From positions 1 to 15,546 of the IMG/VR virus record IMGVR_UViG_3300003848_000002: a DNA stretch of 15,546 nt. One strand, given 5' to 3'. Source of the DNA: a virus (taxonomy: Duplodnaviria > Heunggongvirae > Uroviricota > Caudoviricetes). The notes under the pieces are model-generated. The model was not told where the DNA came from. It saw only the letters and a program-made list of their open reading frames with translations, and searched no databases. Numbering within the stretch: the stretch's first letter is position 1; each line of letters opens with the position of its first letter. This document shows, piece after piece, positions 1 through 15,546 of the stretch. The position numbers were made by a program, and so were the translations under genes.

Positions 1-1
1 T

Positions 2-1165: not shown

Positions 1166-1182
1166 GTGGTTAACTACCTATC
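1161..1182. promoter_or_regulatory. 22-bp quasi-palindrome, copy 1 (GATAGGTGGTTAACTACCTATC)
   Basis: Differs from its own reverse complement at only 2 positions. Overlaps the terL stop, upstream of the portal. 20/22 identical to 4616-4637 and 18/22 to 2687-2708. Function inferred. Confidence 0.7.
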
Positions 1183-1219
1183 TTAAAGCGGTATTTATAT
1201 TAAATTGGGGTTTGGTCAA

Positions 1220-2788
1220 ATGGAATTGACTGACAAAGTAATCAAGGATCTGGTTAAACGCCGGCATCCTGAGTACGAAAAGAAAAAGGAGCATTGGGAC
1301 TTTATTTCGGCCACCTACGCGGGTGGCCGGGCATGGTTCGATGACAACGTTTTCCGCTATTTCAAAGAAGGTGATCAGGAATACAAAGAACGTGTAGAGC
1401 GAGCATACCGCTTCAACCACACGCGTGAAGTTGTAAACCTGATCAACAAATACATTTTCCGCGAAGATATTCACCGCACTGAGGAAGATGCACCTGAGTT
1501 CATCCGGGATTTCTGGCGCCGCGCGACACGTCAAAACGTTTCCGTTAACGAGTTCATGGCCGCCATCGATCTGCAATCCTCCATCTATGGGCGAATTTGG
1601 GTTGTGGTGGATAGCACAATGGAAGCTGGAGCTGAGTCGGTTGAAGACCAGAAGAAGCAGGATGGCCGCGCCTACGCTTACTGGATTTCACCGCAGCAGA
1701 TGCTTGATCTGGCATGGGATGACGACGGTAACTTGCTGTGGGCGCTGGTGGTGGAAGTCGCCCGTGATGATGCCGACCCGTTTACATCTACCGGACAGGA
1801 GTTCCAGCGTTATCGCTTGTGGACTCAAAACGAATGGTATCTGTTCCGCGAAGAAGTGAAGAAAGGTGGCCATAAAGGTAATGCTAAGGTTTACCTCGAA
1901 GATAGCGGTGAGCATAACCTGGGTGTTGTGCCGGTGTTCCCTGTTGACTGTATTGGTCAAAGCGAATCGCCATACTTCAGCCCATCGCTCATTGATGACA
2001 TCGCTTACCTTGACCGTGCGGTGGCCAACTACCTGTCGAACCTTGATGCAATCATTCAGGATCAGACCTTCTCCCAGCTGGCGATTCCAGTTCAGGCAAT
2101 GCTGCCGGGCGATGAGAACCACGGCAAGGTATTGGAAATGGGAACTAAACGAGTGTTTACCTTTGATGGCGAAGGTGGCTCGCAGCCGTTCTACATGTCG
2201 CCAGACCCAAAGCAAGCCCAGATGATCATCACCACGGTTCAGACTGTCATTAACGAGATTTATCACTCTGTTGGTGTTGCCGGTGAACGAACCAAGCAGG
2301 ACAACGCCAAGGGCATTGATAATTCCTCTGGCGCAGCCAAAGCATACGACTTCCAGCGCGTGAATAGCTTGCTGGTGACGAAAGCTGAACGTCTGGAACG
2401 TGCAGAGCGCCAGATGCTTGCCCTGGTTGGCAAATGGATGGGTGAAGAGCTGGAAGACGATCACACATTGGTTAGCTACCCGGAGAGTTTCGACATCCGT
2501 GGTTTGACTGACGAATTTGCTGTTGCTCAGCAGTTATCAGAGTTGCAGGCGCCGGAAAGTGTTCGTCGTTATCAGATGGAAATGCTCATCGATAAGATTT
2601 TCCCGAACGTCACGGAGAAAATGAAAAAGGAATTTGAGGCAGATCTCTTGAAATTTCCTCCAAAAAATGTATCTGTGGGTATTGAAAATAGGTTGTCAAC
2701 TACCTATGATAAGGCATCTTCTCAAGAAACCGAGAATACTTCTTCCCAAGGATCAGGGAACTCATCTGCTCAAGCAACCGAGCGATAA
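1220..2788 (+). CDS. Portal protein (~522 aa)
   Basis: Follows terL, typical size, SPP1/HK97-class portal-like sequence (RFNHTREVVNLINKYIF, GVVPVFPV, SLIDDIAYLDRAVANYLSNLD). ATG 1220 with GGGG at 1207-1210 is preferred over TTG 1205. The last ~40 aa are low-complexity S/T/Q/E. Confidence 0.9.
   Translation: MELTDKVIKDLVKRRHPEYEKKKEHWDFISATYAGGRAWFDDNVFRYFKEGDQEYKERVERAYRFNHTREVVNLINKYIFREDIHRTEEDAPEFIRDFWRRATRQNVSVNEFMAAIDLQSSIYGRIWVVVDSTMEAGAESVEDQKKQDGRAYAYWISPQQMLDLAWDDDGNLLWALVVEVARDDADPFTSTGQEFQRYRLWTQNEWYLFREEVKKGGHKGNAKVYLEDSGEHNLGVVPVFPVDCIGQSESPYFSPSLIDDIAYLDRAVANYLSNLDAIIQDQTFSQLAIPVQAMLPGDENHGKVLEMGTKRVFTFDGEGGSQPFYMSPDPKQAQMIITTVQTVINEIYHSVGVAGERTKQDNAKGIDNSSGAAKAYDFQRVNSLLVTKAERLERAERQMLALVGKWMGEELEDDHTLVSYPESFDIRGLTDEFAVAQQLSELQAPESVRRYQMEMLIDKIFPNVTEKMKKEFEADLLKFPPKNVSVGIENRLSTTYDKASSQETENTSSQGSGNSSAQATER
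2682..2710 (+). promoter_or_regulatory. Putative sigma70 promoter inside portal 3' end, with palindrome copy 2 (2687-2708) in its spacer
   Basis: TTGAAA (2682-2687), 17 nt, TATGAT (2705-2710), about 100 nt upstream of the scaffold ATG 2807. AATAGGTTGTCAACTACCTATG spans the spacer. Confidence 0.6.
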
Positions 2789-2806
2789 GGCGTAAAAAGG
2801 AATTTT

Positions 2807-3709
2807 ATGAATCTGTGGCAAATGATGATGGCTCGTCGTGGCCTGATGGACGTCGCTGGCAAGGAAGAGCTGGGCGGTGGTGGTGGTGGTGGTGAACCAA
2901 CTAAAGATCAACCGGGTGAACAGCCTGGTGGCGAAGGTGGCGAACACGACCCTGGCACTGATGGCGCACATAAGCAGGCACGTCAGCCGGAACTCGACGA
3001 TGAATACGCAGGTCTGTCGCAAGAAGAGCTGATCGCAAAACTGCGTGATGCCAAGAAGTCAGGCGCTGAGCTTTTGAAAGAGAGCATGAAGCGCAAGGAA
3101 AAACTGGCTGCTTATGGTGACATCGACCCTGAACGTGCTCGTCGTTTGGTGGATGCTGAAGCTGCGGCAGAACGTACCCGTCAAGAAGCGGAGCAAGCTG
3201 AGCTTGAGCGCCGTGGTGAATTTGACGCGGTCAAAAAGCAAATGGTTGCAGCCCATCAAACCGATCTGCAGGTAGAGCGAGATGCTCGTACCCAGGTTGA
3301 GGCTGAGAATGCCACTCTGAAGGCGCAGCTGCTGGAGATGACCGTAGGTGCATCTTTCTCTGGCTCTGCTTTCTTGCGTGACAAAGCACTGATGACACCA
3401 GCTAAGGCTCGTGTGATTTACGGCAACCATTTTGAAGTAGGCGAAGACGGCAGCGTTGTAGGTTACGACAAACCAGCTGGTCAGAAAGACCGTGCGGTGC
3501 TGGTCGATGGCCATGGCCAACCTCTCGCATTCGAATCAGCGATTGAGCGTATTTTGCGTGCAGATCCTGAAGCCGACGCTTTGCTGCGAAGCGAGGCTAA
3601 ACCAGGTGCAGGCTCACAAAGTAAGCCAAGCGCCAAAGTAACCACCCCGGTGAACAAGTCAACGATTGACAAGTTAACTGCGGGGCTGGGAAAAATCGTT
3701 ACAAAATAA
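2807..3709 (+). CDS. Capsid scaffolding protein (300 aa)
   Basis: Lies between portal and capsid. G/E/P-rich disordered N-terminus followed by a long E/K/A/R-rich coiled-coil-like segment. RBS AAAAAGGA at 2794-2801. Confidence 0.8.
   Translation: MNLWQMMMARRGLMDVAGKEELGGGGGGGEPTKDQPGEQPGGEGGEHDPGTDGAHKQARQPELDDEYAGLSQEELIAKLRDAKKSGAELLKESMKRKEKLAAYGDIDPERARRLVDAEAAAERTRQEAEQAELERRGEFDAVKKQMVAAHQTDLQVERDARTQVEAENATLKAQLLEMTVGASFSGSAFLRDKALMTPAKARVIYGNHFEVGEDGSVVGYDKPAGQKDRAVLVDGHGQPLAFESAIERILRADPEADALLRSEAKPGAGSQSKPSAKVTTPVNKSTIDKLTAGLGKIVTK
2876..2893 (+). repeat. (GGT)6 trinucleotide run within a 7-Gly tract
   Basis: GGC(GGT)6 at 2873-2893 encodes GGGGGGG in the scaffold N-terminus. Confidence 0.9.
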
Positions 3710-3735
3710 CATCTTAATCAAAAGGAATTGAAAAG

Positions 3736-4608
3736 ATGCCATTACTGCGAGACGAAGCTGAAAAGCTGTCTAACAACGAACTGGAACAGGGCGTAATCGA
3801 AACTATCATCGATCGCGATGACCTGTTTGCCGTTCTTCCTTTCATGAAGATCAACTCTAAGGCGTATCTGTACAACCGCGAAGATTCACTGTCTGAAGCC
3901 AGCTTCATTGACGTGAACGATGTGGTTCCAGAAGGCGCTGCAACGTTCACCGAGCATGTGGCTAAGCTGCGTATTCTGGCTGGCGACGTTGACGTTGATA
4001 AATTCCTGGCAACCACCATGGCCGACACCAATAGCCAGCTGGCTATCCAGGTTCGTTCCAAAGTGAAAGGTTTGGCGCGCGCATTCCGCCGCAACCTGAT
4101 CCAGGGTGACTCCACCAAAGATGCCAAATCCTTCGACGGCATTGCCAAACTGATGGCTGCTGATCAGGGCATTGTTGCCAACGCTTCCATGACCTTCTCA
4201 ATGCTCGATGAGCTGGTCGATGCCGTGAAAGATCTGGGCGCTGACTGCCTGATGGTTCGTTCTGAGCATATGCGCGCTTACCGTGCGTTGCTGCGTACCG
4301 TGAACGTCGGCCCGTCTGAAGTGATGATCGAAAACTTTGGTCGCCCAATGCTGACTCACAACGGCATTCCTTTCATCGTGAACGACTTCATCCCTGTTGT
4401 TGACGGCGCTGCCGACATCTACGGCCTGCATCTGTCCGAAGAGAACGGTCTGACCGGTCTGTACGGTGGTGATAATGCCGGTATCGTGGTTGAGTCCATC
4501 GGCACCGTTCAGAACAAAGACGCCCTGCGTACTCGCGTTAAGTGGTACTGCTCTCTGGCGAACAAGCACGATAAAGCGATCGCAGCGCTGAAAGGCGTTA
4601 AGATTTAA
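3736..4608 (+). CDS. Major capsid protein, HK97 fold (290 aa)
   Basis: Follows the scaffold. RBS AAAAGGA at 3720-3726. HK97-class capsid-like segments (LFAVLPFMKI, LAGDVDVDKFL, SFDGIAKL, GRPMLTHNGIPFIVNDFIP). Followed by a strong terminator. Confidence 0.9.
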   Translation: MPLLRDEAEKLSNNELEQGVIETIIDRDDLFAVLPFMKINSKAYLYNREDSLSEASFIDVNDVVPEGAATFTEHVAKLRILAGDVDVDKFLATTMADTNSQLAIQVRSKVKGLARAFRRNLIQGDSTKDAKSFDGIAKLMAADQGIVANASMTFSMLDELVDAVKDLGADCLMVRSEHMRAYRALLRTVNVGPSEVMIENFGRPMLTHNGIPFIVNDFIPVVDGAADIYGLHLSEENGLTGLYGGDNAGIVVESIGTVQNKDALRTRVKWYCSLANKHDKAIAALKGVKI

Positions 4609-4615
4609 TCTTAAT

Positions 4616-4637
4616 GGTAGGTGGTTACCTACCTATC
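4616..4637. promoter_or_regulatory. 22-bp quasi-palindrome, copy 3 (GGTAGGTGGTTACCTACCTATC)
   Basis: 20/22 identical to copy 1. Lies between the capsid stop and the terminator hairpin. Confidence 0.7.
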
Positions 4638-4650
4638 AACGATCACTAGC

Positions 4651-4679
4651 AAGGGTGGGCAAGTCGCCCACCCTTTTTT
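4651..4679 (+). terminator. Rho-independent terminator after major capsid gene
   Basis: Perfect 10-bp stem AAGGGTGGGC / GCCCACCCTT, loop AAGTC, T6 at 4674-4679. Confidence 0.85.
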
Positions 4680-4690
4680 ATGGAGTAAAC

Positions 4691-4900
4691 ATGGCAGACA
4701 AAAAAGTACGTATTACCGAAGAAGTGCTCTCGGATTACACGGGTCACATGTTCGGTGTGCAATTAGAGAATAGCGTTACCACCAGCCCGGTGAGTGAAGC
4801 CCGACAGAAGCGAATGCTTGCCGCCCTGCGCGGTGAGGTAGTTGAGGTAGCTGCAGCCGCACCTACAGCTGCCACCGATGCCGGCACCGGCACTGAATAA
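4691..4900 (+). CDS. Small hypothetical head-associated protein A (69 aa), paralog of the next gene
   Basis: ATG 4691 with GGAG at 4682-4685; the ORF-track start at 4655 falls inside the terminator stem. The first 52 aa align without gaps to the next protein (17 identities). Confidence 0.75.
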   Translation: MADKKVRITEEVLSDYTGHMFGVQLENSVTTSPVSEARQKRMLAALRGEVVEVAAAAPTAATDAGTGTE

Positions 4901-4909
4901 ATATAACTT

Positions 4910-4925
4910 GGCCGTCTAATCGGCC
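4910..4925 (+). other. Short intergenic hairpin GGCCG-TCTAAT-CGGCC
   Basis: 5-bp GC stem between the two paralogous genes; no U tract, function unknown. Confidence 0.35.
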
Positions 4926-4940
4926 TCTATGGGGACTCAT

Positions 4941-5375
4941 ATGAAAACTGCAAAAGTAAGACTGCTCGAATCCTGCTTCAAAGCCTATACCGGCATGCTG
5001 TGTGGCATCCAGTTTGAAGATGGCATCTCTGTATCAGAACTGCCATTTGTGGATCAGCAGCGTATTTGCTCATCTATGCGCGCAGAAACCATTGAGGGCA
5101 CCAATGTGTCTCCTTCTGGCATTTATAGCGAACGTCATGGGTTATCCGCTGACAACGTAAAAGAGACCTCTGCGCCGGTTAATGAGCGTATGGAGCGAGT
5201 GACCACGCAAGCCCATGTAAGCACTCAGCCTATGTTCTCTCGTGAAGAGCTGGAGGCGGTAGCCGATAGCGAAGGAATTGCCGGTTTACGCCAGATCGGA
5301 AATGAGCTGGGGGTAAAGGGCAAGGGCATCGTTGAGATGATTGAAGGCATTTTGAAAGCCCAGGGCGGTGAATGA
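4941..5375 (+). CDS. Hypothetical head-associated protein B (144 aa) with possible C-terminal HeH/LEM-like helical domain
   Basis: ATG 4941 with GGGGA at 4931-4935. The N-terminal domain is shared with the previous gene. The C-terminus LRQIGNELGVKGKGIVEMIEGILKA has a helix-extension-helix-like pattern. Confidence 0.75.
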   Translation: MKTAKVRLLESCFKAYTGMLCGIQFEDGISVSELPFVDQQRICSSMRAETIEGTNVSPSGIYSERHGLSADNVKETSAPVNERMERVTTQAHVSTQPMFSREELEAVADSEGIAGLRQIGNELGVKGKGIVEMIEGILKAQGGE

Positions 5376-6205
5376 TGGCTCAGCTCGGCACGTTTAAAAG
5401 CGGCGAAGCTGTTTCGCTGTCATTCACTCTCAATGTGCTAGACGCGGCAACCGCAACGTACACCCTGAAAGACGGCCGGGCGAACATTGTGGCGGAAGAT
5501 GTGCCAGTGGAATTTGAGGCTGGCCAGATGTCCGTCACTGTTGTCGTGCCAGCTGAATACAATCAGCTGGCAGATCGTGAACGGGATTTGCGTCGTTTGG
5601 TCTTGACGGTTAATGACGGCACTATTAATCACCTCACAGAGCAGCTGTATGTTCTGATGGCAGACTTTGAGCTGGCGGTTCCACGGCATTCGTTTGCCAC
5701 AATCGCCGACGCCCAGATGCAGGCAATCGACATGCTGAATGGTGATGCTTTGCTTGCCGATGGCGACAGCTTGATGCGTAAGCGTCTTATTGAGGCCACG
5801 AATCGCATTAAGACAATGCCTTTCTCAATTCGTCGAATCTTTGGTATCGATTATGACGATTACGATCGACCGCAAAACATGCTGAACGTCACCACAATGC
5901 CGTTTGGCGCAGCAGGACAGTACCGCGTTGATATGGTGGATTGGGATGAGCTGACCGATGAGGATTTTGCTGCATTCCCGGATGTCTTTAAGCGCGCTGT
6001 GATGTTGGCTGTGATCAACGAAGCGTGTGAAATTGCCAACGGCAATGATGTAGCTGCCGCGCGTGAAGATGGAATCCTGTCGGAGTCGATTGGCGAGACG
6101 ACCAACATGTACCGAACCGGCAAGAGCGCACCCAAAACGGTTGCCAGAACCACTTGGCGTTTGTTAGCGAAATACACTAATAACCGGTTTATCGTTCGTC
6201 GATAG
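5375..6205 (+). CDS. Head-tail adaptor-like protein with extra N-terminal beta-rich domain (~276 aa)
   Basis: Overlaps the previous stop (ATGATG at 5372-5377; either ATG is possible). C-terminal part has SFATIADA, LIEAT and ILSESIGETT motifs typical of head-tail adaptors. First ~100 aa are beta-strand-like. Confidence 0.7.
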   Translation: MAQLGTFKSGEAVSLSFTLNVLDAATATYTLKDGRANIVAEDVPVEFEAGQMSVTVVVPAEYNQLADRERDLRRLVLTVNDGTINHLTEQLYVLMADFELAVPRHSFATIADAQMQAIDMLNGDALLADGDSLMRKRLIEATNRIKTMPFSIRRIFGIDYDDYDRPQNMLNVTTMPFGAAGQYRVDMVDWDELTDEDFAAFPDVFKRAVMLAVINEACEIANGNDVAAAREDGILSESIGETTNMYRTGKSAPKTVARTTWRLLAKYTNNRFIVRR

Positions 6206-6314
6206 CCAATTGTCGTGCCAGCAGCCACCAGCATGGGGGCAGGGTTGAAGTCATCCTTGATGCACCCGCACCAGCTGAATGGCGCTGGCGCTGTTTATTC
6301 ACATGGAGGTGAGT

Positions 6315-6659
6315 ATGCACGTAGCCTGGCAAACTGAACTCGCTGTGTACCGCAAAGGCGGAATGAACATCTACGGCGAGTCGAAATATCAATTTGTTAG
6401 AAGCGCCAAAGTTGGCGTGGTGAACTTCACGGAAGGTGTTGTCCAGTCGTCCGTAAGGGCTGATAGCTCTGGTAGTCGTGGCAAAGCTGACGTAGAGACG
6501 TTTAATGCTGTGTTAATTGTGCCCCTGGCTGCTGATGTTAAGCTGGATGACGTTCTGGTGATGTCTGGCACTAAGTTGCTGGTGGCGAGCGTAGAGCGTC
6601 GTTGGGGGCTTCGTGGGCGCCCTGGTCATCTGGAAGTCGGGGCAAACGTATGGGTCTGA
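6315..6659 (+). CDS. Head closure (stopper) protein (~114 aa)
   Basis: Strong RBS GGAGGTG at 6305-6311 before ATG 6315, preferred over 6279. Position after the adaptor, and the NIYGE and DDVLVMSG..LLVASV...GHLEV patterns, fit SPP1 gp16-class proteins. Confidence 0.7.
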   Translation: MHVAWQTELAVYRKGGMNIYGESKYQFVRSAKVGVVNFTEGVVQSSVRADSSGSRGKADVETFNAVLIVPLAADVKLDDVLVMSGTKLLVASVERRWGLRGRPGHLEVGANVWV

Positions 6660-7120
6660 GTTACGACGCTACAAAGTTACGACGCCAGGCCAATTCTCTC
6701 GATCAGCGTCAAAAAGCATTTAAGCGTTACCTGCTTCGCGACATGGAGAAGGTGGCTAAGGTGATGGAGCGATTGGCCAGAGCTATGGCGCCGATTGAAA
6801 CCGGATCACTTGAAAAGGCGATTTACGCGCGCGTGATCAATAACTTCTCTGAGGTGAAAGTCGAGCTGTATGTCTCCGGTGCAACATCTCGCGAGGGACA
6901 CCCGGGCGTGACGGTTGGGCAATATGCGGATTACATGCACAACGATCACTACCGGCTTGGCCGATTGTCGAGAATGAAGAGCGTCACCAACCCGCCGATC
7001 GAGGGAATGCGAGCGAGGGTAGGGCGTCTCTATATGGAGCGCGCGATTGAAATGGGCGAAAAACGGTTCAGGGAAGCTGTGACAGAAGCAGCGAGAAAGG
7101 CCGGATTCACAAGGGGGTGA
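6650..7120 (+). CDS. Neck protein, HK97 gp10-like (~156 aa)
   Basis: ARAMAPIETGSLEKAI matches the A..APVDTG.L..SI signature. ATG 6650 overlaps the previous gene and has GGGG at 6639-6642; the ORF-track start at 6602 is unlikely. Confidence 0.8.
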   Translation: MGLSYDATKLRRQANSLDQRQKAFKRYLLRDMEKVAKVMERLARAMAPIETGSLEKAIYARVINNFSEVKVELYVSGATSREGHPGVTVGQYADYMHNDHYRLGRLSRMKSVTNPPIEGMRARVGRLYMERAIEMGEKRFREAVTEAARKAGFTRG

Positions 7121-7121
7121 A

Positions 7122-7502
7122 ATGTTTATTGAAGTGTTTGCTAAATTTCTTCAGGACAAGAAGTTAGGCGTGATTGGTAAAGATACTTTCGCGCATCACA
7201 TGCCGGCTTCAGTCAAAAGCGGAATTTTGCTGGTGAATCCCAATACCGGTATTGCCATTGACCGCGAGCTTGATGGCTTTTATCAGGATGTTTTTACAGT
7301 AATCATCAGAGAGCCAACATTGTCTGCAGTGTCGGCCAGAGCTAACAAAATCATGGCCGTACTGCCTCTGCTTGATACAGAAGTCCAGGGCATTCGGTTT
7401 AAATTTGTTAAGCCTCTGTCTCTACCGATCATTTACCCGCAGGATGATGGATCGCTGTTCGAAGCTGGTATTCCCGTCGAATTTGCAGCATATCCAGTGT
7501 AA
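7122..7502 (+). CDS. Tail terminator / tail completion protein (126 aa)
   Basis: Directly upstream of the tail tube gene. N-terminal FLQDKKLGVIGKDTFAHHMP pattern typical of this class. RBS GGGGGTG. Confidence 0.7.
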   Translation: MFIEVFAKFLQDKKLGVIGKDTFAHHMPASVKSGILLVNPNTGIAIDRELDGFYQDVFTVIIREPTLSAVSARANKIMAVLPLLDTEVQGIRFKFVKPLSLPIIYPQDDGSLFEAGIPVEFAAYPV

Positions 7503-7510
7503 TCATCATT

Positions 7511-7565
7511 AAAATAGCTTCATGGTTACTTTTTTAAAGTAAAAAATAGCTATATACTTACTTTT
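7511..7565 (+). promoter_or_regulatory. AT-rich putative promoter/operator region of major tail gene with tandem 23-bp repeat
   Basis: AAAATAGCT-N6-TTACTTTT at 7511-7533 and 7543-7565; inverted repeat TTACTTT/AAAGTAA at 7526-7542; TATACT at 7553-7558 with no recognisable -35. Confidence 0.55.
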
Positions 7566-7583
7566 GCCGCAAGGAATGCGGCA
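7565..7583 (+). promoter_or_regulatory. Leader hairpin with AGGAA loop
   Basis: Perfect 7-bp stem TGCCGCA / TGCGGCA, upstream of RBS AAGGAG (7595-7600). Confidence 0.55.
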
Positions 7584-7610
7584 CTTAATGCAAAAAGGAG
7601 TTTGCAAACA

Positions 7611-8372
7611 ATGGCTAACACTCATGTTAAAAATATCAAATTAGGCGCTTGCAAAGTGTGTTTCGGTGGCCAGGATCTTGGCTACACTAAAGGCGGCGTT
7701 GAAGTTGAGATTTCTACCGAAACCCTCAAAGTCACCGTTGACCAGTTGGGTCAGACCACCATTTCCGAACTGGTGCAGGGTCGTAACGTGAAAGTTACCG
7801 CTCCACTGGCCGAAAGTGTTCTGGCGAACCTAGTTAATCTGATGCCTGGCTCGACCATGTCTGAAGATAAAAATACCCTGTCAATCAGCTCCGCTCAGGG
7901 CGTCAACCTCGTTGATGTTGCCCAAGAACTGATCCTGACGCCGCAGGACGGCACCGACTTCGTGCTGACTCTGCCGAAGGCCGCTACCGCGGGTAACTTC
8001 ACCATGGCCTACAAATCCGATGACGTTCGCGTGTTCTCCGTTGATTTTAACGCATACCCGGACGACGACGGCATTCTTGGAACCATGACCAACCCAAAGC
8101 CTAATGCTGGTGACGCATCTGTCGCAGTCACTGGCGTAGCTGTTAATCCAACCACGGCAAATATTGCAGTGGGCGGTACTACTCAGCTGGCCGCAGTATT
8201 TGCGCCTACCAACGCCACCGATAAAACCGGTACATGGGTATCGAGCAACACTGCTGTAGCTACTGTAGATAGCACCGGCAAGGTAACTGGTAAGGCTGCG
8301 GGTAATACCCAGATCACCTTCACCACCACTGACGGCGCGAAGACTGCTTCGGCGGCAATCACCGTCGCGTAA
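7611..8372 (+). CDS. Major tail (tube) protein with C-terminal Big_2 Ig-like domain (253 aa)
   Basis: ATG 7611 with RBS AAGGAG, preferred over TTG 7602. Tube domain LGYTKGGVEVEISTE. C-terminal ~83 aa (8121-8369: VTGVAVNPTT...TWVSSNTAVATVDSTGKVTGKAAGNTQITFTTTDG) is a classic Big_2 pattern. Confidence 0.92.
   Translation: MANTHVKNIKLGACKVCFGGQDLGYTKGGVEVEISTETLKVTVDQLGQTTISELVQGRNVKVTAPLAESVLANLVNLMPGSTMSEDKNTLSISSAQGVNLVDVAQELILTPQDGTDFVLTLPKAATAGNFTMAYKSDDVRVFSVDFNAYPDDDGILGTMTNPKPNAGDASVAVTGVAVNPTTANIAVGGTTQLAAVFAPTNATDKTGTWVSSNTAVATVDSTGKVTGKAAGNTQITFTTTDGAKTASAAITVA
8093..8135 (+). other. Candidate -1 ribosomal frameshift signal in major tail gene
   Basis: In-frame C_CCA_AAG (8093-8099), 6-nt spacer, 9-bp stem GCTGGTGAC / GTCACTGGC (8106-8114 / 8127-8135); -1 frame stop TAA at 8102-8104. 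Confidence 0.6.
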
Positions 8373-8378
8373 CACCTA

Positions 8379-8401
8379 AAGAGGCTCAGGACGAGCCTCT
8401 T
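8379..8401 (+). terminator. Hairpin after major tail gene (weak terminator or leader element; AGGAC loop)
   Basis: Perfect 9-bp stem AAGAGGCTC / GAGCCTCTT followed by GTTT (interrupted U tract). Confidence 0.55.
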
Positions 8402-8419
8402 GTTTAAATGGATTTGAAA

Positions 8420-8737
8420 ATGACCAAATTACTCGATCTGGATGCAATCTCGCCTCCACAAAAAGCAATCAAATTCGGCGGCAAGAAATACCCGATCGTC
8501 GAAATGACCGTTGGTCTGTTCGTCGCTATTAAGCAGATGGAAGGGAAGGATCTCTCCGCTCTGTCTATGGCCGATCAGGTAACCTCATACGCGGATCTGG
8601 TGCAGAAGTTACTGCCCACCGTTACCCCTGAAGCACTTGAAAAGCTGTCGCTGCCGCAACTGCAGCAGGTGTTCACCTTCGCCATGGAAGTTGTTGAAGA
8701 AGAGAACGAAAAAGCTGCCGGTGAAGAGGCAAAGTAA
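8420..8737 (+). CDS. Tail assembly chaperone G-like (~105 aa; alternative start 8408)
   Basis: Small acidic helical ORF between the tube gene and the tape measure gene. GGA at 8410-8412 favours ATG 8420. Confidence 0.8.
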   Translation: MTKLLDLDAISPPQKAIKFGGKKYPIVEMTVGLFVAIKQMEGKDLSALSMADQVTSYADLVQKLLPTVTPEALEKLSLPQLQQVFTFAMEVVEEENEKAAGEEAK

Positions 8738-8760
8738 TTACCCGCGATGAGTCCGGGCAG

Positions 8761-9090
8761 ATGGTGACGGTTTCCATCGATCTCGGATTCTATTTCAGTC
8801 GTGTTGTTGCTCACTATGCCGTTTCACCGAGAGAACTACTCCAGCTGCCGTTGGCCATGTTTTGGATGTTAAGTCGAAACATTGATCGTCTCCGGGCTGA
8901 AGAGGATGTCCGCAGTTTCCAGGTGGCAAGAGTCGCCCAGGCAGATGCGGATAGCGGCAAGGCGTTCATGGAGGGTTTGCAACACCGTATTGGAAGACCA
9001 GTCGTTACCGATAAAGTCTACGATCCAAGTTATGCGAAAGCAGACCCCGACGCCAAAGAGCAACTGATGAAAATTTTTGGCGCAGGATGA
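8761..9090 (+). CDS. Tail assembly chaperone T-like segment (probably expressed as a G-T fusion by -1 frameshift)
   Basis: In the -1 frame relative to G and open from 8725, so it overlaps the G 3' end. Only a weak RBS before ATG 8761. Ends next to the tape measure start. Confidence 0.75.
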   Translation: MVTVSIDLGFYFSRVVAHYAVSPRELLQLPLAMFWMLSRNIDRLRAEEDVRSFQVARVAQADADSGKAFMEGLQHRIGRPVVTDKVYDPSYAKADPDAKEQLMKIFGAG

Positions 9091-9097
9091 CAAGGGA

Positions 9098-12000
9098 ATG
9101 TCTGACAACGTAGAGTTTATTCTGTCGCTGGACGATAAAAAGTTCACCGCGGCAATCGACCGGGCGGGAAAACTGCTGGTCAGTTTTGGCGAGAAGGCCA
9201 CAAAGCCAGCCCAAAAAATCGCAACACTTGAGCGCTCTCTTGGTTCAGTCGCCGGGATTTTGGGGACGCTCGACAAAAAGCTGGAATCGGTCGCCAACGG
9301 TCTTCAGGACTTAGGCGCCGGTTTCGAGCTTGTCTCAAAGGCCATGCGCGACACCAGACAAGAGCTGGTGGCGTTCAATGCCAACCTCAAAACCTACACC
9401 ACTCGCATTGACGCTGCTGATAAAGCCACAAAAGGGTTTCATCATTCGCTGCAGGCTGTCCAATCTGAGCTGAGTGATTTCTCCGATTGGGCTAATCATG
9501 CTGGTCGCTCTGCATCATCATTTGGCCATGAGGTCAAACAAGCTAACACCGCAACCTCTGGCATGAGCACTCGTTTGTCCAACTCCAGCAAGAAAATGGA
9601 GAATTGGGCTGCATCGTCCACCAAAGCCGCCACCCAGATGAAAAAGGTCGTGGCGGAGATGGACGCGCTTATTAACCGCCAAAGAGAATTGGGCAATCTG
9701 CGAGCGGATGTACGTGGACCTGGCCGTGGTGGTTCCGGTGGTCGTTCGGGTCGTGGTGGTCGTCACTCAAGCGGCGGTCTGATGGACGGCATGAGAGGCA
9801 ATATCTTCATGCTCGGTGAAATCGGGGATGCAGCCTATACCGTTCAGCAGATGTTGTTTGGTTGGCAGGTGCCAATCGTCGAAGCAGCAGCCCAGATGCA
9901 GAAGATGCGCATCTTGCTTGAAGGCATGAACAAAGAAGCAGCCAACCCGAAGCTGGCTGCGACTAATGACATGAATTACATCGTGAACATGGCTAAAACA
10001 GCCCCGTTCGCAATGGAAGCGCTGACAGACGCATTCGTTAAATTCAAGTCAGCTGGCATCGATCCCGCTAATGGCTCTCTAAAGTCGCTGGTTGACTCTG
10101 TGGCTCGCTTTGGTGGCGATAGTGAGCTGTTGAAGCGAGCAGCTGTAGCAATCCAGCAGATGTCCGGTAAGGGCGTCATTTCGATGGAAGAGCTGCGTCA
10201 GCAATTAGGTGAAGCAGTTCCTACCGCGATGCAGGCAATGGCAGATTCCGCAGGCGTTACCATGGGGCAACTGACCAAGGCGATTTCTACCGGTACTGTC
10301 TCAGCGAAGCAGGGTTTAGAGCTGTTATTCCAGGGGCTTGATGCTCAAAGCCGTGGTGCAGCCGAAAATCTTATGCAGGCATACAGTGGGGCGCTGGCTC
10401 AACTCCAGACCTCATTCACTCTGTTTGCCGATCGTATTGGCCGTGCTGGCTACCTTGAATCAATCACTAAAGCCTTCAAAGAGTTGTCCAGTTACATGAA
10501 CAGCACTGACGGGAAGGTGTTTGCGCAGGATCTGGGCGAGGGGCTGTCCACTGCGGTAAACGCGCTAATGGATATGGCGAAGTGGGCGGAGCGTAACAAA
10601 GAGCTGCTTCTCACGCTCGGCCAGACTGCTTTAGCATTAATCGGCTTTAAAGTGCTGAAAGGTACTGTGACAGGGCTGGCCACTGCAGGTACACAAATGG
10701 GAGGCAGCTTCAAAAAAGCATTTGAGGTCGTAAACGGCGCTGGTGCGAAAACAATCAGTGTAATTGCCGGTGTAGTTAAAACATTCCGTGATCTCGGCGG
10801 CACCGCGGCGATGATCATCTATGTAGGCGAGGCCATTAAGATGGTTCGCACCGCATGGCTGGCATTCCAGGCCGTGATTGTGGCCAACCCTGTGGGCGCA
10901 GCAATTACCGCAATTGCTTTAGCGGTCGGTGGGTTAATCACCGTAATGTCATCGCTGCGTGACAAAACCGCCGAAACAGTAGCGGAGATTCGCAAGATCC
11001 CTGAAGCGATGACAGCGGCACAGCGATCTCAAATGACCGCTCGTATCAAGCAGCTAGAGAGCCAGAACAGCGGCGATCAGCAGACCCTTGATGCGATGAA
11101 GAGCGGTGGCCTTTCGTCTTCAGCAATTGGTGTTGATCAGAAGGCACTTCAGTCGCGGTTAGAAGCAAATAAGAAGGAGTTGGCTCAGCTTAAAGAGACC
11201 GTTGGTATGGGTGATAAAGCCCAATACGAGAACCTGGCGCGCGATATTGTCACCAAACGCCTGGAAGACGTAGACAACGGCATCAAAGCGGGGATGGCTC
11301 AGTACAGCACCACTACTCTTAAGGACGCACGCAATAAGCGCACGGTGCTTTCGCAAGACCAGAAAATGTCTCCATCTGAGAAAAGCGCGCAGCTGGAAGC
11401 AATCAACGCTGCCGATCGCGACGCTCATCTCAAGCCATTCCTGGATGGGGCAGACAAAACCCAGAAGATCGTCGATAGCCTTGGGCAAGAGGTTGTTCGA
11501 ATTACGAAGCTGCTGGAAAACCCGAACCTGAATGACAGCGACCGCTCGCGTCTGCAAGGTCAATTGAATGGCCAATCTCAGGCATACAACACCGCGCAGG
11601 AATCACTCAGCAGTTTACAGGGGCAAATTAAGAACATCCGTGAACAATCTGGTAAGGGCTTGCAGATGCTGGATGGTTCTTATTATACCGGTGTTGGCGG
11701 TACCAAAAAGCAAGATGATCGCCTGAACTCACTGTTTGTAAATTCCCAGCTCGGTACTGGCAAACAAACCCGAATGAATCCAGACGGCACAATCATGCGT
11801 GATATTGCCGGCGATGCTGTAAAGGGTGATGCCCAGCTGAAGGCTAACACTAAGCTGCGTTCTATCTACGGCGAAACCATTAAGATGGAGCAACTTACCG
11901 CAGACCAGCGCGAGAAGATTTCTTCCATCCTGACCGCGGCAAAGCTGAAGGATGAGCAAAAAGCCCAGCGCGCAGCTGAGCGAGCGGGTAAATCTGCTGA

Positions 12001-13675
12001 ATCAGCGGCTAAGCGTGAGGAGAGTGCGCGTCAAAAGGCAATTAAAGCCAATGAGACGTGGATCGGAAGAGCGGAGCAGATGGCCGGCCAGTTGGGGTTG
12101 TCATCGAAAGCGAGCGTTGAGTTCGACCAGAACATTCAGGAAGTCACCAAGCACCTGACTGAGATGGCTAACGCAGTGCCAAGCGATACGCTTTCCAAAG
12201 GGATGATCGACAACGCCAAAACCATGCTGGCGTTCATCAACCAGAACAAGGACGCCTATTCCAAGCGGCTGAATCAAGACGCTGCCGAACAGAGTATTGC
12301 CAAGTTCGCTCCGATGGCCAACAAGGTGATCAGCTCAGGCTACACCCCGGATTATCAATCTACGGCGGCCGAGTGGAATAAGAAGTTTAACGAAAGCCTG
12401 GCTTACCTGCAGAGTCAGTCGAAGAACGCTCAAGACCAGGGCATGAAAGAGGTGTACGACCGTGCAATCTCACAAATGCTGGCTGGCCGAAATAAAGCGT
12501 TTATTGCAGAGGTTGGCACGTCTCAGCAGAAATTGGCGCAGGAGTACAGCGATGTAGCCTCGCAAATGGAATCTGTGTGGACGAGCTGCTTCGAAAATCT
12601 GACTGATAAGCTGACCGAGTTCGTCAAAACAGGCAAGTTCAGCATCGCTGATTTTGGCGATTACATCTTTGACGAAATGTTGAAGGTTAGCACCAAAGCA
12701 CTGGTTGTTGAGCCGCTTATGCAGTCGCTGGGCAAGGGTACAAACTCAGGAGCCAGTTGGGGCGATAAACTGTCGGGTGCCAAAGATGCGGTTATGGGGA
12801 GCTTCACTAAAACCCAGCAATCAAGCTCGCCAGTTGAGGCAATGTCTTCACCAGCCAGCGCCGGTAACGACTCTGGCAGCATGTTTGATGGGCTAAAGAA
12901 CTCCTTCAAGTCACTGACCACATCCTTATCGGATCTGGCGTCATCAGGTTTGAAAAGCCTGAAAGATGGCTTCAACGAATTGACGGGCAGTACCAAAAAC
13001 TCGACAACCGCGGTGACGCAAAATGCAGTCTCTACTCAAGAGGCGACATCTGCAACTCGTGGATTCACTTTGTCAGCAAGCACGGCTGTAACTGCGATCG
13101 GTGCGACGATTTCAGCGCTGGGCGCTGCTACAGGCAATAAGTGGATGGGGTATGTAGGGGCGGCCGCGAGCATTATGGGGTTGGCATCATCTGCGTATGG
13201 TGCGATGTCCTCTGCCGGTTGGACAGGAAACTCGGCCAGCACGGTGCAGGATGGAACCGAAGGTTTTCAGGTCAAGCCAAACGCCAATCAGTTTCAGGTG
13301 ACGGCACACGCCAAGGGCGGGGTGTTCGGTCCAGACGGTGTGGTTCCTCTCAAAAAGTACGCCAAAGGCGGTATCGCCTCATCCCCGCAGCTGGCGTTGT
13401 TTGGCGAGGGCAGTCACAAAGAGGCGTATGTGCCACTCCCAGACGGGCGTTCGATCCCGGTGACGTTTACTGGCGGTGGCGAGGGTGCTGGCGGCGACAG
13501 TGTGGCGATTTCTATCACTGTTCAGAATTACGGTGACGGTAGCAGCAAGTCATCTGAGAACTCGGACAACGGCTCTCAGTGGAACGATATGGCTCGCAAA
13601 GTTAAGGCGGTCGTGCTTGACACACTGACCGACGAAAGCAGACCGGGCGGCATGTTAAGCAGTACAAGCAAATAA
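9098..13675 (+). CDS. Tail tape measure protein (~1525 aa)
   Basis: Longest ORF, Ala/Gly/Ser-rich helical composition, tape-measure domain (AKTAPFAMEALTDAFVKFKSAG...AIQQMSGKGVISMEELRQQLGE), hydrophobic central stretch, C-terminal HAKGGVF...FGEGSHKEAYVPL motif. ATG 9098 (AGGA at 9084-9087) is preferred over TTG 9077. At the lambda rule of ~0.15 nm per residue this implies a tail of roughly 230 nm (inference). Confidence 0.95.
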   Translation: MSDNVEFILSLDDKKFTAAIDRAGKLLVSFGEKATKPAQKIATLERSLGSVAGILGTLDKKLESVANGLQDLGAGFELVSKAMRDTRQELVAFNANLKTYTTRIDAADKATKGFHHSLQAVQSELSDFSDWANHAGRSASSFGHEVKQANTATSGMSTRLSNSSKKMENWAASSTKAATQMKKVVAEMDALINRQRELGNLRADVRGPGRGGSGGRSGRGGRHSSGGLMDGMRGNIFMLGEIGDAAYTVQQMLFGWQVPIVEAAAQMQKMRILLEGMNKEAANPKLAATNDMNYIVNMAKTAPFAMEALTDAFVKFKSAGIDPANGSLKSLVDSVARFGGDSELLKRAAVAIQQMSGKGVISMEELRQQLGEAVPTAMQAMADSAGVTMGQLTKAISTGTVSAKQGLELLFQGLDAQSRGAAENLMQAYSGALAQLQTSFTLFADRIGRAGYLESITKAFKELSSYMNSTDGKVFAQDLGEGLSTAVNALMDMAKWAERNKELLLTLGQTALALIGFKVLKGTVTGLATAGTQMGGSFKKAFEVVNGAGAKTISVIAGVVKTFRDLGGTAAMIIYVGEAIKMVRTAWLAFQAVIVANPVGAAITAIALAVGGLITVMSSLRDKTAETVAEIRKIPEAMTAAQRSQMTARIKQLESQNSGDQQTLDAMKSGGLSSSAIGVDQKALQSRLEANKKELAQLKETVGMGDKAQYENLARDIVTKRLEDVDNGIKAGMAQYSTTTLKDARNKRTVLSQDQKMSPSEKSAQLEAINAADRDAHLKPFLDGADKTQKIVDSLGQEVVRITKLLENPNLNDSDRSRLQGQLNGQSQAYNTAQESLSSLQGQIKNIREQSGKGLQMLDGSYYTGVGGTKKQDDRLNSLFVNSQLGTGKQTRMNPDGTIMRDIAGDAVKGDAQLKANTKLRSIYGETIKMEQLTADQREKISSILTAAKLKDEQKAQRAAERAGKSAESAAKREESARQKAIKANETWIGRAEQMAGQLGLSSKASVEFDQNIQEVTKHLTEMANAVPSDTLSKGMIDNAKTMLAFINQNKDAYSKRLNQDAAEQSIAKFAPMANKVISSGYTPDYQSTAAEWNKKFNESLAYLQSQSKNAQDQGMKEVYDRAISQMLAGRNKAFIAEVGTSQQKLAQEYSDVASQMESVWTSCFENLTDKLTEFVKTGKFSIADFGDYIFDEMLKVSTKALVVEPLMQSLGKGTNSGASWGDKLSGAKDAVMGSFTKTQQSSSPVEAMSSPASAGNDSGSMFDGLKNSFKSLTTSLSDLASSGLKSLKDGFNELTGSTKNSTTAVTQNAVSTQEATSATRGFTLSASTAVTAIGATISALGAATGNKWMGYVGAAASIMGLASSAYGAMSSAGWTGNSASTVQDGTEGFQVKPNANQFQVTAHAKGGVFGPDGVVPLKKYAKGGIASSPQLALFGEGSHKEAYVPLPDGRSIPVTFTGGGEGAGGDSVAISITVQNYGDGSSKSSENSDNGSQWNDMARKVKAVVLDTLTDESRPGGMLSSTSK

Positions 13676-13685
13676 GGAGTGGGGA

Positions 13686-14018
13686 ATGTCACGGACGACA
13701 TTTACCTGGTTCCCGTTGTTTGATTCCGAGAAGGAGGTGAAGCCGGAAGTAACCCGGCTCGCCTTCAACGAAGGGTATGAGCAACGTGTAACCAGTGGTT
13801 TGAACTGGCGCAAATCCAGCTGGGATCTGCAATTCCAGGGTACACGAACTGAGATGCAGGAGATCGACGACTTCCTGTATGCGCGCGGCGGGGTGGAATC
13901 ATTTGACTGGATTTCACCAAACGGGCAGAAGGTTGTCGTGGTGAGCGATAGCCATAAGGTCAAAAACTCACGAGGGTACGCGACCTTGACCACAACTTTC
14001 CGCCAAGTATTTGAGTAA
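13686..14018 (+). CDS. Distal tail protein, lambda gpM-like (110 aa)
   Basis: TFTWFP, FNEGYEQRVTSGLN, IDDFLYARGGVESFDWISP match the lambda gpM family; RBS AAGGAG at 13674-13679. Confidence 0.9.
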   Translation: MSRTTFTWFPLFDSEKEVKPEVTRLAFNEGYEQRVTSGLNWRKSSWDLQFQGTRTEMQEIDDFLYARGGVESFDWISPNGQKVVVVSDSHKVKNSRGYATLTTTFRQVFE

Positions 14019-14022
14019 CAAA

Positions 14023-14060
14023 AGCCCTCCAAGGATGGGGGGCTAATATTCAAGGATGAA
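14023..14060 (+). promoter_or_regulatory. Gene L leader with two CAAGGATG elements, each in a hairpin loop
   Basis: AGCCCTCCA-AGGA-TGGGGGGCT (14023-14044) and TTC-AAGGAT-GAA (14049-14060). The second overlaps the RBS of ATG 14069. Confidence 0.55.
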
Positions 14061-14068
14061 GATAGAAA

Positions 14069-14767
14069 ATGGAAACTATTGTATCGAGTATTCAGTCGCT
14101 CCAACCGAGTGCGCTGATTGAAGTGTTTGAGCTGGATATGTCAGTAACTACCAGCGGTGGGAAGCTGTATTTTCATGCAGGCACCAACGAACTTTCTGAA
14201 CCAATTATCTGGCAGGGGGTAACCTATAAACCATGGCCAATTGCGGCATCTGGTTTCGATAAAAATGGCCAGGGCAAGTTACCGCGACCAAAACTGCAGG
14301 TGAGTAACCTCGATGGAATTATTTCGGCTGAAGTGCAGTCGAATGAGGATTTGATCGGCTGTAAGCTGATTCGTCGAGTCACGCTCGCTCGATTTTTAGA
14401 TGCTGCCAACTTTACTGAGGGCAACCCAACAGCTGACGCGAACCAGCATTTTGCCGATGAGATGTGGTACATCGACCAAAAGACTTTTGAGGATCGGGAG
14501 ATTGTTGAGTTTGAGCTTGCCTCAGCCTTCGATCTGATGGGGGTTATGCTACCCAACCGCCAGATCGTCAAAAACTCATGCCAGTGGCAGTATCGAAGCG
14601 CTGAGTGCGGTTATACCGGTCCCTACTTTGACAAAAATGACGCTCCAACCAAACTGGCCAGCGCCGACTATTGCACCAAACGATTGTCATCGTGCCGTGC
14701 TCGGATTAATTACTTTGCCAATGGCATCATTGCGTTTGGCGGGTTCCCCGGAGCAAACCGCGCATGA
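14069..14767 (+). CDS. Tail tip protein, lambda gpL-like (232 aa)
   Basis: LIEVFELD, WQGVTYKPWPIAASGF, PRPKLQVSN, VEFELAS, FGGFPG motifs. Four Cys in C-x8-C-x21-C-x6-C (codons at 14579, 14606, 14672, 14693), matching the Fe-S ligand arrangement known for lambda gpL. Confidence 0.92.
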   Translation: METIVSSIQSLQPSALIEVFELDMSVTTSGGKLYFHAGTNELSEPIIWQGVTYKPWPIAASGFDKNGQGKLPRPKLQVSNLDGIISAEVQSNEDLIGCKLIRRVTLARFLDAANFTEGNPTADANQHFADEMWYIDQKTFEDREIVEFELASAFDLMGVMLPNRQIVKNSCQWQYRSAECGYTGPYFDKNDAPTKLASADYCTKRLSSCRARINYFANGIIAFGGFPGANRA

Positions 14768-15540
14768 TGAAAAATGAAATGATGAATGAAAAGCTGCTTG
14801 GCGCTATGCGCCTTGCCGCTTTACAGGAATATCCGAATGAGGCTTGCGGCCTGCTTATTAATACGAGAGCGAATAAGTATGAGTTAATTATTTGCCGAAA
14901 CGTCGCTGATGATCCTGAAAACTATTTTGTCATGCACGCCGAAGACCAAATTGCAGCTGAGAAAGCTGGCGAGGTGGTGGGCGTTTGGCATTCGCATACT
15001 GACGAGGACAATCAGGCGTCTGAGGCAGATGTGTCTGGTTGTGAAGCCTCAGAGTTGCCGTGGTTTATTATCAACATCAGCAAAAATTACAATCCTGAAA
15101 TTGATGCAGAGTTTCGTTTTAGTGATGTAAATGTGATCAAGCCATCTGGATTTGAAATGCCTTATGAGGGAAGACCTTACGCATTCGGGGTATTTGATTG
15201 CTGGTTGCTGTGCCGAGATTATTTAAAGCGAGAGAAAAATGTGGCTATTGGCGTCTGCCCCGAGTTGCATATCCCATCGTGGTGGGAAAAGGGGGTTGAT
15301 ATTTTAAACGACAACTTCCAATCACAGGATCTTGTAAGATTACCACCGGGAACCCCACGTCAAAATGGCGACATTTTCTTCATGCAGTTAGCATCGCAAG
15401 TTCCTGATCACTGTGCAGTTTACATTGGCGATGGTATGATATTGCATCATCAAATGGATAGATTGAGCTGTAAAGCAATTTATGGCGGGATGTACGAAAA
15501 GCACACTACGCACCATTTGAGACACAAGGATTTAATGTGA
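14764..15540 (+). CDS. Tail assembly protein, lambda gpK-like (JAB/MPN + NlpC/P60; 258 aa)
   Basis: ATGA overlap with gene L. Intact JAMM motif E(NEACG)...HSH-x7-S-x2-D; NlpC/P60 PYAFGVFDCW, DHCAVY and LHH. Confidence 0.92.
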   Translation: MMKNEMMNEKLLGAMRLAALQEYPNEACGLLINTRANKYELIICRNVADDPENYFVMHAEDQIAAEKAGEVVGVWHSHTDEDNQASEADVSGCEASELPWFIINISKNYNPEIDAEFRFSDVNVIKPSGFEMPYEGRPYAFGVFDCWLLCRDYLKREKNVAIGVCPELHIPSWWEKGVDILNDNFQSQDLVRLPPGTPRQNGDIFFMQLASQVPDHCAVYIGDGMILHHQMDRLSCKAIYGGMYEKHTTHHLRHKDLM

Positions 15541-15546
15541 GGGAAG

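Follow-up and report, generated by a model that had tools for sequence, protein, structure and literature searches.

In-frame and predicted frameshift-dependent decoding of an Ig-like domain at one slippery heptamer in the tail tube genes of SSU5-type phage-plasmids

The tail tube gene and the heptamer at its domain junction

A 15,546-nucleotide (nt) stretch of viral DNA (positions 1 to 15,546 of the IMG/VR record IMGVR_UViG_3300003848_000002; hereafter the window) was analysed with respect to a C_CCA_AAG slippery heptamer at the domain junction of its major tail (tube) protein gene. It comes from a virus record of 79.5 kb and carries the structural module of an SSU5-type phage-plasmid; the nearest named relative was plasmid pCP102 of Enterobacter sp. 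CP102, the tail proteins being 97.6% identical. An original prediction, made from the letters of the window, had proposed that a -1 frameshift at this heptamer strips the C-terminal immunoglobulin (Ig)-like domain from the tube protein. Comparison with related loci indicates that the family of SSU5-type tail tube genes has a true recoding position at this heptamer. For the window itself, the reading that we prefer, at about even confidence, is a slippery site that is competent and tolerated but not selected. The features referred to below are collected in Table 1.

Table 1. Positions of the tube gene features in the window (no prefix) and of selected variants in related loci (locus:positions)
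Feature	Position	Strand	Basis
Major tail (tube) protein gene, 253 amino acids (aa)	7611..8372	+	Open reading frame (ORF) list, Pfam, PHROG 1280/885, AlphaFold, Foldseek
Tube domain (aa 1-160), linker (aa 161-171) and Big_2 Ig-like domain (aa 172-248)	within 7611..8372	+	
Weak Shine-Dalgarno (SD)-like GGA, 11 nt upstream of the heptamer	8079..8081	+	
In-frame slippery heptamer C_CCA_AAG (Asn161 wobble base, Pro162, Lys163)	8093..8099	+	X_XXY_YYZ reading
Clade-specific 22-nt segment, absent from clade P, that puts Big_2 in the zero frame	8100..8121	+	Junction comparison
TAA stop of the -1 frame, one codon past the shift site	8102..8104	+	
RNA hairpin of 13 pairs (8104-8116 with 8124-8137), bulge at 8126, 7-nt loop	8104..8137	+	RNAfold
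Frameshift-dependent tube genes (zero frame ...CCA AAG TAA/TAG, then -1 Big_2 ORF)	L002:1983-2252; L003:1983-2245; L118:500-766; L199:1983-2250		
Natural deletion variants	L004:1981-2000 (E. coli pNT1F34-108k, ends GPKL); L078:1681-1700 (ends GPKR)		

The tail protein was matched to PHROG 1280/885, and Pfam placed Big_2 at its C-terminus (E 1.2e-17). The N-terminal 160 residues have the siphophage tail tube fold; the structural matches given by Foldseek were the tail tube of Mycobacteriophage Douge (8zdj_S, E 1.2e-11), lambda gpV (7t4f_A, E 2.2e-10) and also T5 pb6 (E range of the three, 1e-10 to 1e-11). The gene is located between the tail terminator gene (PF12691) and the chaperone and tape-measure genes, and by both fold and gene position its product is a lambda-gpV-like siphophage tail tube protein with a C-terminal Ig-like domain. 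In the AlphaFold model of the 253-aa protein (mean predicted local distance difference test score, 80.5), residues 163-168 were the sole internal stretch of low confidence, and Pro162-Lys163 is, as modelled, the start of the interdomain linker. Because Big_2 of the window gene is in the zero frame, the gene does not belong to the class in which the Ig-like domain is encoded in an alternative frame (Fraser et al. 2006). A second Big_2 gene that could have donated the linker was searched for within the window and was not found.

Codon reading placed the heptamer in frame at the tube/Big_2 junction, where the zero frame reads AAC (8091) CCA AAG CCT AAT and the -1 frame reads CCC AAA GCC TAA, so that a shifted ribosome would produce a 164-aa protein with the end TNPKA instead of the 253-aa form; on these points the original prediction was correct. 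The downstream stem that it described is also present, although not at the 9 bp given there, since the structure predicted with RNAfold has 13 pairs and a free energy of -16.0 kcal/mol for the hairpin alone (0.47 kcal/mol per nt). The first pair is formed 4 nt past the heptamer and the G-C core begins after 6 nt. The 61-nt context folded at -21.2 kcal/mol (z = -2.67; 1 of 200 shuffles was as stable; range of z with the context, -2.4 to -2.7). The upstream GGA lies where it had been noted, but the role proposed for it, that of a conserved SD-like stimulator, was rejected: only GGA is present, and the Gly codon at this site varies among the homologs (GGA, GGG, GGT or GGC), including the frameshift-dependent ones.

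Heptamers of the X_XXY_YYZ type were found in frame at 16 sites in the 4,896 codons of the window (approximately 19 expected), and among them the site at 8093 has the most stable downstream fold and sits on the domain boundary. The same heptamer in the portal gene (2206-2212), which had been raised as a caveat, indeed occurs there with no downstream structure (-3.6 kcal/mol). The chance that a Pro-Lys pair after any codon reads C_CCA_AAG was estimated to be approximately 4.5% from the codon usage of the phage (CCA, 0.33; AAG, 0.51; third-base C, 0.27).

The junction in related loci

Approximately 200 homologous loci were collected from plasmids, phage records, IMG/VR and metagenomes, and 59 distinct junction sequences of four architectures (clades A, P and B and the lineage L199) were obtained. 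The window belongs to clade A (7 distinct junctions; protein identity, 97.5-100%), all members of which have an in-frame Big_2 together with the heptamer, the -1 stop and the hairpin. Among the loci collected, the only named host of clade A is Enterobacter (pCP102). A 50-kb contig (L013; DALYYK010000001.1), with a tube gene 99% identical to that of the window, was deposited within a metagenome-assembled genome of 'Candidatus Fimivivens sp.', an assignment that may be a binning artefact. Clade P (Klebsiella-type; 13 distinct junctions), whose tube domain is 83-88% identical to that of the window, has Big_2 in the -1 frame; its members include Klebsiella plasmids (among them K. pneumoniae KpPF25 p2 and K. 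oxytoca pCAV1015-111; accessions NZ_CP065827 and NZ_CP017931) and many IMG/VR and metagenome contigs. The same layout was found in a second, divergent lineage (L199). In both, the zero-frame codons are NNC CCA AAG TAA/TAG, with the end at Lys163, and an intact Big_2 ORF of 86-89 codons lies in the -1 frame (Big_2 E, 1e-16 to 1e-20). The loci with the Ig-like domain in the alternative frame were L002, L003, L117-L129, L174 and L199; at the frameshift-dependent tube genes the gene tables of the plasmids, which omit pseudogenes, give no coding sequence.

Since the zero frame stops directly after Pro-Lys and Big_2 lies in the -1 frame, clade P and L199 must shift at C_CCA_AAG to make the tube-Ig form, as judged from their sequences. 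The -1 ORF of clade P had a ratio of nonsynonymous to synonymous substitution rates (dN/dS) of 0.13-0.3 at dS of 0.5-1.6, which points to purifying selection on the -1 Big_2 ORF. At the three synonymous sites of the clade P heptamer, 0, 0 and 0 changes were counted on the tree against a third-position mean of 1.83 (18% of the third positions were invariant); the residue before Pro varies (Ala, Ser or Asn), yet its codon always ends in C, and the codons after the heptamer (GTG ACG G) are likewise frozen. The downstream structure of clade P begins 7 nt past the heptamer (97.9% of cells paired) and covaries (for example, CG:7, UA:5 and UG:3 at one pair), and 0 of 500 shuffles reached its covariation score. 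The possibility that the frameshift-dependent genes are sequencing errors or pseudogenes was rejected on the basis of the 13 distinct junctions, the intact -1 ORFs and the dN/dS values.

The chaperone gene G of the same phages (window, 8729-8737, and approximately 170 related loci) has the same design as the clade P tube/Ig site: it always ends with NNA AAG TAA/TAG (GCA, GTA or GGA before AAG), and a -1 ORF of 118-121 codons (T) continues from the AAG. Here an A_AAG tetramer, not a canonical heptamer, abuts the stop; a canonical G_GGA_AAG was found at this site in the distant relative L190.

What sets clade A apart from clade P is the 22-nt segment directly after the heptamer, encoding the linker Pro-Asn-Ala-Gly-Asp-Ala-Ser. 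The counterpart of Val-Ala-Val-Thr-Gly-Val, which clade P has immediately past its heptamer, is located at 8121-8138 of the window. This indel fuses Big_2 in frame, so that a -1 shift in the window would truncate the protein and not extend it; the -1 product would be the standard 163-aa product of clade P plus one Ala. The whole 5' arm of the hairpin lies inside the 22-nt segment, and the 3' arm is formed by the Val-Thr-Gly codons.

Clade B contains SSU5, Y. pestis pMT1, the S. Typhi pHCM2-type plasmids and many E. coli and Klebsiella plasmids, and its Big_2 is in frame via a different, shorter linker (Pro-Lys-Pro-Val-Lys/Glu...). An in-frame Big_2 with an intact heptamer also occurs in pMT1, in the pHCM2-type plasmids and in the SSU5 family generally, and the arrangement itself is not rare. 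Nested within the SSU5 clade is an in-frame variant with a divergent Big_2 (L201:1201-2040; protein P0022, 279 aa), in which an acidic Gly/Ser/Asp/Pro-rich linker of approximately 30 residues takes the place of Pro-Lys and the heptamer. In the clade B loci of the pMT1/pHCM2 type with the heptamer intact (L007:1090-1150 and L012:1090-1150), an unusually stable, imperfect hairpin directly follows (-22.5 to -26.4 kcal/mol; z = -3.3 to -5.0), and lineages with a broken heptamer fold weakly (approximately -12 kcal/mol). Lineages with GGC CCA AAG often fold well (z down to -5), and the Klebsiella CTC CCA AAG lineage, with z near 0, breaks the pattern. The link between heptamer integrity and folding in clade B was therefore regarded as mixed and confounded by phylogeny, and was not used as evidence.

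The tube-only protein (162-181 aa) was the sole form in all of the more distant relatives sampled, namely the Photorhabdus, Xenorhabdus, Pectobacterium and Acinetobacter plasmids, Pseudomonas phage nickie and metagenomic relatives of 44-52% identity. Furthermore, two independent deletions between short AAAGC(C) repeats have cut out most or part of Big_2 and left 164-aa tube-only genes (Table 1). The tube-only protein is the zero-frame product of clade P, the sole form in the distant relatives and the form left in these deletion variants, and we infer that it is functional.

The maximum likelihood tree of the tube domain was reconstructed with IQ-TREE, with L199 added; the Ig-less genes of Photorhabdus served as the root. 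Clades A and P grouped together, and L199 was sister to clade B. The approximately unbiased (AU) test rejected the monophyly of all in-frame forms (p = 0.017) and that of all frameshift forms (p = 0.002). At least two switches between in-frame and frameshift-dependent Ig are thus indicated at one heptamer, and in some members Ig was lost outright. The IQ-TREE topology slightly favoured a frameshift-dependent ancestor (2 steps vs 3), and with the FastTree topology the ancestral state was ambiguous; it also became ambiguous when the window clade was placed as sister to all of clade P, at a cost of 0.27 log-likelihood units (AU p = 0.49). The tree-based inference is weakened by the mosaic protein P0021 (163 aa, from a 628-nt ENA contig), in which approximately 95 N-terminal residues are clade-A-like and the C-terminal part with the ...APK stop is clade-P-like, and which indicates that the two architectures have recombined inside the tube gene. 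Under either ancestral state, the window heptamer derives from a frameshift-supporting site: it is a leftover in the case of a frameshift-dependent ancestor, whereas with an in-frame ancestor slippage at the site must have preceded the derived clades, which could not otherwise have kept Ig. According to the literature, chance is probably what decides between in-frame decoding and frameshifting of an Ig extension, and the product that depends on the shift can be switched by a small change (PMC5009743).

Interpretation of the window heptamer

According to the preferred reading, the heptamer of the window would give a few percent of tube-only subunits without having been selected to do so. Decoding in the zero frame yields the 253-aa tube-Ig protein as the standard product. 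A minority of ribosomes (approximately 0.5-10%, as extrapolated from E. coli reporters; a few percent expected) would probably enter the -1 frame in Enterobacteriaceae hosts and end after one more codon, and the resulting 164-aa subunit would co-assemble harmlessly. It is expected to be harmless because the tube-only protein is functional in relatives and because SPP1 tubes can be built from the short form alone (PMC6316719); for the same reason the site would be neither required nor quickly purged.

That the site is shift-prone, as the original prediction had supposed, is plausible, since the sister lineages must shift there and since C_CC.A_AA.G gave the highest efficiency of the -1 heptamers tried in E. 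coli reporters (PMC4066793). In these assays it reached 54% shifting with the IS3 pseudoknot; with the moderate stimulators of IS911 the motifs gave at most a 112-fold increase over a background of 0.037%, and with no stimulators at most a 10-fold increase over a background of 0.055%, that is, approximately 0.5% at most (PMC4066793).

The selective part of the original prediction, that is, a dnaX-like tuning of Ig density, was not supported. In clade B (62 distinct sequences), the best-sampled of the in-frame clades and the only one diverse enough for this purpose, 5, 4 and 2 changes were counted on the tree at the synonymous sites of the heptamer (mean, 3.0), which is the background rate, and the heptamer was lost independently at least four times. 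Non-slippery codons at a retained Pro-Lys, which the prediction had itself named as speaking against it, were found there in many homologs (GGT CCT AAA, GGC CCT AAA, GGT CCC AAA and ACG CCT AAG), together with other junction codons (ATG CAC AAG and GGC CAA AAG). Maintenance of the truncating arrangement by selection across the orthologs is thus contradicted in clade B, on the sequences compared. Heptamer, -1 stop and stem, whose conservation the prediction had proposed to check, are kept throughout clade A; 72% of the third positions of this clade are invariant, so that heptamer conservation is uninformative there. Searches of 5.8 billion proteins for more divergent members of the window clade gave one 90% cluster only (P0001, 37 members), and no in-frame-Ig protein between 68% and 98% identity was found among them.

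The following points weigh against an unselected site. The heptamer has remained intact since the split from clade P, over which approximately 52% of the same-residue codons are identical, and the chance of keeping the three sites was approximately 0.13. In the pCP102-type relatives AAT is changed to GAT (Asn to Asp), and the -1 stop is retained as TGA. The hairpin was found in 7 of the 7 distinct clade A sequences, with 13 of 13 pairs kept and 100% of the cells paired (no double compensatory change was seen); the six substitutions in the stem were all one-sided G-U changes that preserve pairing, and three further substitutions fell in the loop. The probability of this pattern was only approximately p = 0.06 (about 1 in 16), because four of the six substitutions had a one-in-two chance of being tolerated. 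The per-nt stability of the hairpin falls in the range of the stimulatory hairpins of the IS3 family (0.45 +/- 0.12 kcal/mol per nt; PMC4066793). A kept hairpin is what a selected stimulator would look like, and it gives one positive hint for selection. In addition, the amount of shifting in the window is, as stated, an extrapolation from E. coli reporters.

The first alternative is a selected dnaX-like truncating frameshift, in which heptamer and hairpin would be kept to make a fixed fraction of Ig-less subunits; we consider this less likely than the preferred reading. The window has the best E. coli heptamer, a suitably spaced hairpin with low z values and pair-preserving substitutions, and an immediate -1 stop that survives a non-synonymous change, and its shifted product would be the main protein of clade P plus Ala. 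A reversal of roles by a small indel is, moreover, an accepted idea for efficient sites (PMC5009743), and if the in-frame state is ancestral, which the trees allow, Ig could be kept in the frameshift clades only if the site of the ancestor was already shifting. In that case an identical pair of proteins would come from the window clade and from clade P, the logic being opposite and the ratios inverted. The full version of this proposal, in which the sister clades derive the pair of tube-only and tube-Ig proteins from one heptamer, the shift in the window is stimulated by the hairpin and the reversal of roles is selected, has in our view the same lesser likelihood. Besides the clade B heptamers, the in-frame variant L201 without Pro-Lys, the SD element that is not conserved and the uniformity of the window clade count against selection. 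Ig-only, mixed and Ig-less states all occur naturally, and with the tolerance of SPP1 for short-form-only tubes the ratio looks loosely constrained. Also, among the conserved heptamers in E. coli genes, 57 of 69 clusters give shorter products without evidence of function (PMC4066793), and according to a 2025 preprint 26% of the predicted high-efficiency sites in Gammaproteobacteria would truncate.

Absence of meaningful frameshifting in the window is considered improbable. The heptamer would then be inherited Asn-Pro-Lys coding, and the hairpin a by-product of the 22-nt insertion (e.g., a template-switch copy of the neighbouring Val-Thr-Gly codons) or an element of mRNA stability or of an interdomain pause. 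The approximately 4.5% chance of the motif at Pro-Lys, the random rate of in-frame heptamers in the window, the low shifting of motifs without stimulators in reporters (PMC4066793) and the location of the 5' arm wholly within the clade-specific insertion agree with this view. It is countered by the close relatives with the same kind of hosts, in which the same heptamer supports a selected -1 ORF, and by the G/GT shift of the same phages, which uses A_AAG and a stop and hence implies that the host ribosomes slip on AAG. Moreover, a stable hairpin at 4-6 nt downstream is a classic bacterial frameshift stimulator. Transcriptional slippage was rejected from the sequence alone, the A-run being of three bases only.

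Significance and comparison with known systems

Programmed frameshifts that add Ig-like domains to phage tails and heads are well known; the published descriptions concern additions only, and chance is usually invoked to explain how they evolved. The toggling between in-frame and out-of-frame Ig at one heptamer is a new variation on them. The loci compared here form a natural series: Ig in the -1 frame (two lineages), Ig in frame with the heptamer intact (the window, Y. pestis pMT1 and SSU5), Ig in frame with the heptamer decayed, and Ig deleted. This series bears on the gain, loss and reuse of recoding signals and on whether the ratio of Ig-bearing to bare subunits matters; if a selected reversal of roles were true, a small indel would have inverted this ratio along the tail. 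As for annotation, a second product that is not annotated may be made from in-frame genes that carry the heptamer. The original prediction had regarded the arrangement as undescribed, and in the literature searched we found neither a description of a truncating frameshift in a tail tube protein nor a report of frameshifting in SSU5-type phages, the frameshift-dependent tube gene included, nor proteomic or reporter results on two tube products in these phages.

Two tail or capsid forms per gene, with and without a C-terminal surface domain, are made by SPP1 (gp17.1/gp17.1*), Lactobacillus A2, Listeria A118 and PSA (PMC6316719, PMC5009743). In these phages, unlike the window, the shift extends the protein (+1 in the tails of SPP1, A118 and PSA; -1 in A2), and none has been described with a truncating shift. 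E. coli dnaX (tau/gamma) has a -1 shift on X_XXA_AAG, a hairpin approximately 6 nt downstream, a -1 stop after one codon and a shifted product without the C-terminal domains. The window shares with it the immediate -1 stop, which would give a functional domain-less product, and differs in that dnaX has a strong upstream SD-like stimulator, an efficiency of approximately 50% and a conserved function that is experimentally proven. Like the shift predicted here, the -1 shift of the lambda G/GT-type chaperone takes place on ..A_AAG, in a tail gene that belongs to the same operon, but the gene is a different one, the protein is extended by the shift and tail assembly depends on it. Phage lambda gpV has the same two-domain architecture and fold as the window protein at a sequence identity of approximately 19%, and the Ig domain is decoded in frame in both; the domain junction of lambda V is not known to contain a slippery heptamer. 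The tube/Big_2 gene of clade P is orthologous to that of the window and agrees with it in the heptamer, in the codons on which this lies, in the Big_2 domain and in the pair of predicted products. The downstream RNA structures are not homologous, and the shift that adds the domain there would remove it in the window.

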